Assembly: GCF_056746865.1 (NCBI RefSeq) | Contig: NZ_JBWKMP010000008.1 | Source: a plasmid | Direction: 5' to 3' (one strand) | DNA length: 4,315 nt | Shown: one piece after another, positions 560-4,053 of the stretch | Position numbering within the stretch: the stretch's first letter is position 1 | Layout: each line of letters starts with the position of its first letter | The notes under the pieces: model-generated | What the model was told of the DNA's origin: nothing | What the model saw: only the letters and a program-made list of their open reading frames with translations | Database searches by the model: none | Program-made: the position numbers and the translations under genes

Positions 560-754
560 TTATGTTCCTGTTTCACTTTCAGTCTCAAAGCGAACCTGGA
601 TGCTGTTCTGGAGTTCTTCCGCGAGTTCGTGCAGTCGTTCGCACATGGCCGCCTGTTCGTCGGCATCCAGAGCATCCAGTTTTTCAAGCAGTGTCAGGCT
701 CTGGCTTTTGATAAATCGCGCCATATTCAGCGCAGTTTGTTGCTGTTTGTTCAC
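560..754 (-). CDS. rop: Rop/Rom, the RNA I-RNA II pairing modulator protein (64 aa, GTG start)
   Basis: Translation MNKQQQTALNMARFIKSQSLTLLEKLDALDADEQAAMCERLHELAEELQNSIQVRF... aligns by eye with pBR322 Rop (MTKQEKTALNMARFIRSQTLTLLEKLNELDADEQADICESLHDHADELYRSCLARF...). GTG start as in pBR322 rop. GGAG/GGAAG motif just upstream on the - strand. Position and orientation relative to ori match pBR322. Confidence 0.92.
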   Translation of the reverse strand: MNKQQQTALNMARFIKSQSLTLLEKLDALDADEQAAMCERLHELAEELQNSIQVRFETESETGT

Positions 755-880: not shown

Positions 881-1111
881 CAGCATATCAACTGATAAAT
901 AATCCCTGTGCAGTGCAGCCGCTGTTGCATAAAATTTCGCTCTGCGTCGAGTGTTTCTTAATCAATAATTCCGCTGATACTCCGGAAAAACGCGAGTCTG
1001 TTCTCATGCCTGAAATGCCCACACCCCACGCAAAAACAATTTTTTGCTGATTTTTCTTTATAAATAGAGAGTTATGACAAATTAGTTCTTCTTGCTCTCT
1101 TTGTGATATTT

Positions 1112-1160
1112 AAAAAAGCGGTGTCGGCGCGGTGTTGTAGCTGCGCCAACACCGCTTTTT
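1112..1160. terminator. Strong bidirectional rho-independent terminator: 13-bp stem gcggtgtcggcgc / gcgccaacaccgc with one mismatch, 12-nt loop, A6 upstream and T5 downstream
   Basis: Seen directly: aaaaaa-gcggtgtcggcgc-ggtgttgtagct-gcgccaacaccgc-ttttt. A/T runs on both sides allow termination in either direction. Confidence 0.75.
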
Positions 1161-1275
1161 AGGGGTGGTACTGACTATTTTCATAAAAAACATCATTTTA
1201 TATTAGGGGTGCTGCTAGCGGCGCGGTGTGTTTTTTTACAGGACGCCCCTGGGGGCGCTGCTAGGGGTGTCTGTT
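1160..1275. repeat. Repeat-rich, potentially structured spacer: TAGGGGTG x3 (1161-1168 as aggggtgg, 1204-1210, 1262-1269), GCTGCTAG x2 (1211-1218, 1257-1264), CGGCGCGGTGT x2 (1125-1135, 1219-1229), long-range inverted repeat ctagcggcgc(1215-1224)/gcgctgctag(1255-1264)
   Basis: Words found by reading the sequence. No ORF of 60 aa or more on either strand here. Function unknown. Confidence 0.5.
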
Positions 1276-1289
1276 CAGATATGTAGCAA

Positions 1290-2939: not shown

Positions 2940-3854
2940 TTATTTGTTTAATCTCTTTATACTGGTCTCTACATATGTAGGGTTTATTTCGAAACCAATA
3001 TAATCCCTACCTAAATCTTTCGCTGCTACCAATGTAGAACCACTGCCACTAAAAGGGTCAATGACTAATTGACCTTTTTGTGTTGTTAATTCTATAAGTG
3101 TTTTCATTAAGGCTACAGGTTTTTGTGTTGGGTGTAATCCACTTTCATTGCTGGAAAATCCAGCTGTAATGACATTTTCAGGTTTGCCATTTCTTGCTAC
3201 AAATGCATCTTGATTATAAGCACCGACACCATGAATAATTGCATTATCTGCAATTGTGCCGCCAATTTTATATGGTTTAGAGAACCATAGTATGGGTTCA
3301 AAGGTTGGTTGTAGATTTCCAACTCGCCATCCATTCCATTTTTCTGCGTTTAATGTATCCCCGCGCCTTTCGTAAACGCAACTCAACCTTTGGGCTCTGT
3401 GAGGGGCTTTTACTCTCATCCATGCAATTATATCGCGAAGATTGAATCCAGCATCTTCCATTGCACATATGCATCGATGAGAAAATCTTCTGCCTGCAAA
3501 AATAATTGCACTGGCACCTGGTTTTAATACTCTGAACCATTCAGTAGCCCATTCTTCACACCATTGCTGATATTCTAATGGTATTTTCTTATCAGCCTCT
3601 GACCATCCATTTATTGGTTTTCCTCTTTTTTTAAAAATAGCACCTGCGTTTTTCTGCGCAGGGCTTGAACCTAGGTATGCGTTATTTGAGTTATTATGTA
3701 GCACATCCCAGTCTTCTGCTCCTATCCCATAAGGGATATCACTGAGTATTAAATGTGCATATTGTGATGGGAGTTTTTTTATTAATGATATCGAGTTACC
3801 ATTGGTAACGGTATTCTTTTTTATTTCATCAGGTAATTGGATCTTGTTTAACAT
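2940..3854 (-). CDS. DNA methyltransferase, beta-class (motif IV near the N-terminus, motif I near the C-terminus), amino-methyltransferase (N6-adenine by analogy to M.HindIII); 304 aa
   Basis: Motifs seen in the translation: LILSDIPYG (motif IV, DPPY-like), HPTQKP, VIDPFSGSGSTLVAA (FxGxG AdoMet-binding motif I). RBS AGGAA upstream of ATG at 3854 on the - strand. Convergent partner of the HindIII-like endonuclease. Confidence 0.9.
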   Translation of the reverse strand: MLNKIQLPDEIKKNTVTNGNSISLIKKLPSQYAHLILSDIPYGIGAEDWDVLHNNSNNAYLGSSPAQKNAGAIFKKRGKPINGWSEADKKIPLEYQQWCEEWATEWFRVLKPGASAIIFAGRRFSHRCICAMEDAGFNLRDIIAWMRVKAPHRAQRLSCVYERRGDTLNAEKWNGWRVGNLQPTFEPILWFSKPYKIGGTIADNAIIHGVGAYNQDAFVARNGKPENVITAGFSSNESGLHPTQKPVALMKTLIELTTQKGQLVIDPFSGSGSTLVAAKDLGRDYIGFEINPTYVETSIKRLNK

Positions 3855-3948: not shown

Positions 3949-4053
3949 AAAGAAAAAACCGCCTTGCAGGGCGGTTTTTTCAAGGTTCAAAGAACTTGCA
4001 GGTTTTTGAACCACGGTAACTGGCTTTGTGGGAGCGCAGTCACCAAAATCTGT
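3949..4053 (-). ncRNA. RNAI: RNA I, the antisense copy-number control RNA (about 105 nt), complementary to the 5' end of RNA II
   Basis: 5' end placed by analogy with pBR322 RNA I (acagtatttggtatctgcgc... corresponds here to the reverse complement of gcgcagtcaccaaaatctgt). 3' end at the shared terminator hairpin. Confidence 0.8.
3953..3980 (-). terminator. RNA I terminator hairpin (aaaaaa-ccgcc-ttgcag-ggcgg-tttttt), which also forms the 5' stem-loop of RNA II
   Basis: Seen directly; equivalent to the pBR322 aaaaaaaccaccgctaccagcggtggtttgttt element. Confidence 0.8.

Follow-up and report, generated by a model that had tools for sequence, protein, structure and literature searches.

What is the function of a 164-bp block, positions 1112-1275, that stands out on a small plasmid by a strong hairpin and by a set of repeated words? 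The window, i.e. the whole stretch of DNA that was analysed, represents the entire plasmid, a ColE1-type replicon of 4315 bp. The initial annotation had read the block as a bidirectional terminator followed by shuffled repeats and nested inverted repeats, and had proposed a small structured RNA, a protein-binding array or a scar of past recombination. It had also found no explanation for the block among ColE1 functions, and rightly so: the explanation lies in functions of the F plasmid. With high confidence, we assign 1112-1275 to the half of an F-type origin of transfer (oriT, ~1003-1276) that binds TraM; this oriT is an orphan, residing on a small ColE1-type plasmid without transfer genes.

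The block resides on a ColE1-type restriction-modification plasmid

According to the list of open reading frames (ORFs) and the matching records, the plasmid carries rop (560-754, minus strand), the gene of a HindIII-family restriction endonuclease (1944-2939) and a methyltransferase gene (2940-3854, minus strand). RNAI (3950-4051, minus strand) was the sole Rfam 15 match above the gathering score in the whole window. Over its full length, the window is 100% identical to three plasmid records of 4315 bp originating from E. coli and Salmonella, which comprise the HindIII-family restriction-modification system together with rop and cer. At 1490-1518, we observed a motif that we take to be the XerC/XerD core of a cer-type site (GGTGCGCGTAA-TGCGACG-TTATGGTAAAT), comparable to cer of ColE1; its XerD-arm word TTATGGTAAAT is found again at 1929-1939, immediately upstream of the restriction endonuclease ORF. 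A 97-aa ORF (1585-1878) probably corresponds to the 'hypothetical protein' CDS of the matching records; downstream of it, at ~1881-1906, lies a clean terminator made up of a hairpin and a T run. Sub-threshold Rfam matches to rsmX, Trp leader and isrK at 1798-1908 most likely reflect this terminator.

The block is part of an F-type oriT

Comparing the plasmid with the oriT of F (F 66139-66410) revealed a gap-free alignment over window positions 1003-1276, with 85.4% identity, and beyond 1276 the identity to F amounts to just 25.6%. The right-hand limit of the homology to F-like plasmids can be placed at 1273-1277, where identity drops, traM is absent and the plasmid's own sequence towards cer follows. 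The right flank beyond the end of homology is common to four small plasmids. A similarity search with 1105-1280 retrieved 3809 plasmid records, of which 3020 belong to conjugative plasmids. In F and nine other IncF-type plasmids that we examined, the matching segment is located in the non-coding gap reaching from the SLT/gene X gene to traM, and this gap is the origin of transfer. The gene X and traM flanks are both missing from the window, and the oriT is therefore an orphan. Compared to F, the window also lacks the DNA between sbmA and traM, and the plasmid is devoid of traM, traY and traI. As neither the ORF list nor the matching records contain TraI, TraY or TraM for this plasmid, the oriT can act only with an F-like helper that supplies all of them in trans.

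The homology extends to the nic region and the TraI trans-esterase site, which map to the minus strand at 1019-1029 and read 5'-TTTGCGTGGGGTGT/GGGCAT-3', the slash marking the nick between 1021 and 1020. The F TraI substrate is TTTGCGTGGGGTGT/GGT (PMC2504302), and the minus strand at 1036-1019 is identical to it over 14 nt on the 5' side of nic and 2 nt on the 3' side; 3' of nic, the window sequence diverges from F. Relaxosome cryo-EM has located the TraI trans-esterase site at bp -2 to +9, IHFa at +23 to +60 and the TraY arm at +43 to +94 (PMC12117103). We assigned bp +1 to window position 1021, numbered towards traM and transferred the F site coordinates through the gap-free alignment. On this basis, the IHFa-equivalent position would span 1043-1080 and the equivalent of the TraY-binding arm (sbyC/sbyA) 1063-1114. 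A nic-proximal inverted repeat, GCAAAAACAATTTTTTGC, can be read from the sequence at 1031-1048 and is conserved with F (GCAAAAACAAGTTTTTGC). With positions transferred from the F literature, the order of sites is colinear with that in F, namely nic, IHFa, sbyC/A, sbmC, IHFb, sbmB and sbmA. Homology, colinearity and site positions are direct observations of the present analysis.

The strong hairpin maps to sbmC

In the F literature, three TraM sites are described between nic and the traM promoter. Among these, sbmC lies within an inverted repeat and matters most for transfer, sbmA shows the highest symmetry, and sbmA and sbmB overlap the traM promoter. The F duplex ds-27_+143 encompasses full sbmC (PMC12117103). 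Because full sbmC of F thus ends by +143, which corresponds to window position 1163, the presumed terminator at 1112-1160 can be assigned to sbmC, and the repeat arms, the fold and the motifs of this palindrome point to the same site. The arms, at 1113-1130 and 1143-1160, are 18 nt long and 94% complementary. As RNA, the hairpin was predicted to fold with -34.6 kcal/mol on the plus strand (z = -7.65) and with -31.6 kcal/mol on the minus strand (z = -7.92). Like F sbmC, both arms bear F-type TraM motifs, AGCGGT at 1117-1122 and ACCGCT at 1151-1156.

The same palindrome has the anatomy of a Rho-independent terminator, with a GC-rich stem of 20 bp between A6 and T5 flanks, a pronounced folding stability on either strand (z ~ -7.7), and a run of U5 following it on the plus strand and of U6 on the minus strand. 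It could thus mainly or additionally serve as a bidirectional terminator that shields the oriT or the cer region from read-through, a role that we nevertheless consider very unlikely. Unlike Rho-independent terminators, the hairpin lacks a transcription unit that it could end: upstream of it, neither strand has the end of a plausible gene, and 950-1600 contained no promoter-like site. A consensus scan for terminators in this same interval left 1112-1160 uncalled, picking up only two weak sites at 1209-1229. Moreover, the F counterpart is a documented TraM site, i.e. a known site of protein binding to double-stranded DNA. Finally, a stable hairpin is absent at the sbmC position in 5 of 11 homologous oriTs (z >= -0.9 in four of them and -2.1 in the fifth); the hairpin-free F-like alleles of p2012C-4221, pKSR100, pKP18 and pEA24_5 yielded z-scores between -0.9 and +0.1. 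Since several F-like oriT alleles lack it, the 1112-1160 hairpin is an allele-specific arrangement of TraM half-sites rather than a conserved terminator, and the function that the initial annotation had ascribed to it finds no support.

Compared to F and to sister small plasmids, the asymmetric centre of the window's sbmC (1130-1143, CGGTGTTGTAGCTG) is inverted. When flipped, it matches the corresponding sequence of pO26-S3 at 14 of 14 positions, as compared to 4 of 14 in the direct reading; for F, the respective values are 12 of 14 and 4 of 14. This inversion explains why sbmC and sbmB both carry the word CGGCGCGGTGT on the plus strand. In the pSNC3-Kan paper, the same spot of sbmC was mentioned only as the "least conserved region". 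Megablast searches with flipped and unflipped sbmC 49-mers returned 295 and 1037 records, numbers that are ambiguous, given that the flipped palindrome is approximately the reverse complement of the unflipped one. We therefore checked the orientation of sbmC in its sequence context in two conjugative plasmids. The inverted centre, in the same orientation relative to traM, is also present in the IncF plasmids pSCMY2 and pEC488-3.

The repeated words are parts of TraM recognition sequences

The features listed by the initial annotation, comprising the hairpin, the repeated words and the pairings, are all present at their coordinates. The repetition is well above chance level: the 164-bp region contains 8 repeated 8-mers as compared to a shuffle mean of 0.41, and a single one of 2000 dinucleotide shuffles reaches 8. 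The word TAGGGGTG occurs at 1160, 1204 and 1262, GCTGCTAG at 1211 and 1257, and CGGCGCGGTGT at 1125 and 1219, with no occurrence of any of the three on the opposite strand. In TAGGGGTG, GCTGCTAG and CGGCGCG, parts of the sequence recognised by TraM are reiterated, and the symmetric binding of TraM is reflected by the inverted repeats of the block. The suggestion of a protein-binding array was thus right in kind, as alignment and literature identify the repeats as the TraM sites sbmC, sbmB and sbmA of an F-type oriT.

Downstream of the hairpin, a spacer (1161-1202) harbours the first TAGGGGTG copy, GTACTGAC and an A/T-rich stretch. It is identical to F at 40 of 42 positions, and GTACTGAC is invariant across 12 oriTs. 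The spacer aligns with the IHFb region of F, which in the F literature adjoins sbmB. The IHF consensus WATCARNNNNTTR, searched with at most one mismatch, had no match in this presumed IHFb spacer and was not enriched in the window; the label of a putative IHFb site for 1161-1202 derives solely from the alignment to F.

The two remaining TraM sites were positioned from where the motifs fall, from the direct repeat and from the alignment to F, and labelled A and B by the order nic-sbmC-sbmB-sbmA-traM known from the F literature, where one 75-bp DNA holds sbmA plus sbmB. The predicted sbmB (TTAGGGGTGCTGCTAGCGGCGCGGTGTGTT, 1203-1232) is identical to F at 30 of 30 positions and contains the sole NheI site of the plasmid (1214-1219). 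The predicted sbmA (1243-1272), a dyad-symmetric site, is indicated by the F motif positions, its symmetry and the alignment. Both sites have the core GGGG(T/C)GCTGCTAG(C/G)GG in common, forming the direct repeat D1.

The TraM motif of F is A(G/C)CG(G/C)T (Wong et al. 2011), and the two F motifs in sbmA align with window positions 1245-1250 and 1263-1268. In the window's sbmA, this canonical motif is missing, with AGGGGT replacing AGCGGT and CCCCT being present on the other side. Accordingly, the outer half-sites, which are ACCGCT...AGCGGT in F, read CCCCT...AGGGG in the window as well as in the pSLT-like and pKP18-like alleles, and ATCCT...AGGAG in pCam. Over 12 oriTs, 92.5% of the cells of the sbmA dyad are paired, and 3 of its 10 pairs change on both sides. 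Judged from this alignment, such symmetric double changes are as expected for a site that would co-evolve with a symmetric binding protein. Because sbmA lacks the canonical F motif yet sbmB is identical to F, the window oriT is a mosaic of allele types. Given the missing motif in sbmA and the inverted centre of sbmC, F TraM's affinity for these two sites, and its binding to the window's own variants, are putative.

The nested pairings within the repeats exist as proposed. Of the ten positions in 1215-1224 (CTAGCGGCGC), nine pair with 1255-1264 (reverse complement CTAGCAGCGC) and one forms a G-T, and CGCCC at 1244 and GGGCG at 1253 are both present. However, these pairings are not those of the predicted minimum-energy fold, and the segment 1161-1280 folds no better than shuffled sequences (z = -1.49 on the plus and -0.43 on the minus strand). 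With a fold stability at shuffle level on both strands, we dropped the small RNA as a candidate.

The proposal that 1160-1280 encodes a small structured regulatory RNA had been built on the nested inverted repeats and on the lack of a convincing ORF, which is essentially right, since only two short, overlapping, mechanical ORFs of 57 and 56 aa cross the block. In addition, the traM promoters overlap sbmA/sbmB in F-like plasmids, so that some transcription could start here. Still, such an RNA is extremely improbable. Besides the lack of excess folding stability, there was no Rfam 15 match at E <= 1 within 1112-1275, the scan of 950-1600 revealed no sigma-70-like promoter, and the F sequence that follows sbmA, traM included, is lacking. 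Known sites for proteins binding double-stranded DNA fully account for the conserved features.

Proposed mobilisation by an F-like helper

In F, TraM tetramers bind cooperatively to the double-stranded DNA of the three sbm sites, bridging the oriT to TraD, and without any sbm site, F transfer falls 10,000-fold (PMC12117103). Applied to the present plasmid, the F-type organisation suggests the following route. The TraI relaxase of a co-resident F-like plasmid, aided by IHF and TraY at 1043-1114, would nick the minus strand between 1021 and 1020. TraM tetramers of the helper would bind double-stranded sbmC (1112-1160), sbmB (1203-1232) and sbmA (1243-1272). By contacting the coupling protein TraD, TraM would then hand the nicked small plasmid to the F conjugation pore for transfer.

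The F-type oriT of this plasmid type is already known, as it has been described and experimentally tested for pEC156, a plasmid of 4312 bp with a ColE1-type replicon, an EcoVIII restriction-modification system (AAGCTT), cer and rom (Werbowy et al. 2016, PLoS One, PMC4743918). Its 'oriT-type F' matches F 66136-66410 and has been annotated with sbmA, sbmB, sbmC, sbyA, sbyC and IHF sites (PMC4743918). The window has in common with pEC156 the ColE1 replicon with rom, cer, the EcoVIII/HindIII-family system, the size of ~4.3 kb, the extent and the sites of the oriT, and an R64-type oriT ~230 bp upstream (PMC4743918). It fits the pEC156 plasmid type, an identity deduced from these common features, with a length of 4315 bp as compared to the reported 4312 bp. 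The oriT-type F was also reported for pKPN2, pSe-Kan and pColG (PMC4743918), and the block of pColG is 100% identical to that of the window.

The upstream site is a second orphan oriT, of the R64/IncI1 type, located at 775-862 of the window (GGTAATTGTAA...TTACAATTGCACATCCTGTCC). About 1585 conjugative plasmid records match it, with ~86% identity among the matches listed. The 'oriT-type R64' of pEC156 has been published, and the plasmid was mobilised by R64drd11 (PMC4743918).

The data on pEC156 also bear on whether the block might be an inert relic, i.e. a fragment of F oriT that was left by recombination and is no longer functional. The homology stops directly behind sbmA, there is no traM, and both sbmA and the centre of sbmC deviate from F, all of which would be expected of such a remnant. 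However, F mobilises pEC156 derivatives efficiently: with F' as helper, their mobilisation reached 0.55-0.63 relative to F transfer, whereas a derivative without both oriT loci was mobilised at 0.0001 (PMC4743918). Furthermore, the 1112-1275 block is at least 99% identical in 118 plasmid records and at least 95% identical in 216, occurring on differing small backbones of 2.3-5.3 kb, and the same allele represents the resident oriT of the IncF conjugative plasmids pSCMY2 and pEC488-3. A non-functional relic is therefore highly improbable. The 'scar of past recombination' of the initial annotation is apt insofar as the block is part of a captured piece of F-like oriT, with the homology ending just after sbmA; being functional in pEC156, it is no dead scar.

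The pEC156 constructs may also be informative about the individual TraM sites of the F-type oriT. In the mobilisable plasmids pIB8 and pIB9, a 0.8-kb cassette is inserted into the NheI site of pEC156, in whose numbering oriT-F occupies 4098-4312/1-69 (PMC4743918). Coordinate 1 of pEC156 falls within ~10 bp of the NheI site of the window, and from this mapping, the site used in pIB8 and pIB9 appears to be 1214-1219, inside sbmB. If the two NheI sites are the same, the cassette splits sbmB and moves sbmA 0.8 kb away while mobilisation is still efficient, so that sbmB and sbmA would contribute little in cis. Provided that the NheI mapping is right, this suggests that an intact sbmB and an adjacent sbmA are dispensable in cis, and the mobilisability of pIB8 and pIB9 would fit sbmC as the critical TraM site.

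oriT segments are shared with conjugative IncF plasmids

Over the 247 bp of window 1019-1265, the conjugative IncF plasmids pSCMY2 and pEC488-3 show 100% identity to the small plasmid, while being F-like on both sides of this segment, which is located at ~1408-1654 of NZ_CP122518.1 and NZ_CP109877.1. The shared segment includes the sbmC centre in its inverted form and a left half of sbmA that is of the small-plasmid type. As for the breakpoints of the exchange, the left one can be resolved only to 1019-1040, a range that includes nic; on the right, the breakpoint coincides with the centre of sbmA. Based on these sequence relationships, it is very likely that small and conjugative plasmids have exchanged oriT segments in some way. 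The more specific idea that the stretch from nic to sbmA constitutes an exchangeable cassette, moving between small ColE1-type and IncF conjugative plasmids, is tentative and in our view rather doubtful. Speculatively, TraI-mediated oriT-oriT strand exchange in co-transfer could combine with homologous recombination within sbmA; if true, such events would create hybrid TraM sites.

The E. albertii plasmid pEA24_5 (8.6 kb) presents, at 240-560, the left and right flanks of the window with a more divergent F-like oriT allele between them. Among the matches listed for the pEA24_5-type allele, no conjugative one was closer than ~90% along a portion of the query, or 75-85% along its greater part. 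Because a close conjugative counterpart is thus lacking among these matches, we do not generalise the cassette-exchange idea.

Implications for plasmid spread

Beyond the published description of pEC156, the present analysis makes minor additions, namely the inversion of the sbmC centre, the symmetric co-variation of the sbmA half-sites and the oriT segment shared with some IncF plasmids. For the understanding of TraM specificity and oriT evolution, their interest is modest. The main value of the assignment is that it keeps the block from being recorded as an unknown RNA or a terminator.

The plasmid resembles the MOB-less 'pOriT' plasmids, which are likewise small, carry a conjugative-type oriT, lack a relaxase and depend on a helper (Ares-Arroyo, Coluzzi and Rocha 2022, NAR, PMC10123127). 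It differs from these in carrying two different orphan oriTs, of the F and the R64 type, an arrangement already published for pEC156. Spread by means of a borrowed oriT is established for pEC156, pKPN2, pSe-Kan and 'pOriT' plasmids generally. For the present plasmid, the borrowed F-type oriT, together with the second, R64-type oriT, would be offered to whichever conjugative plasmid is co-resident, explaining how a 4.3-kb restriction-modification plasmid without transfer genes spreads among enterobacteria.
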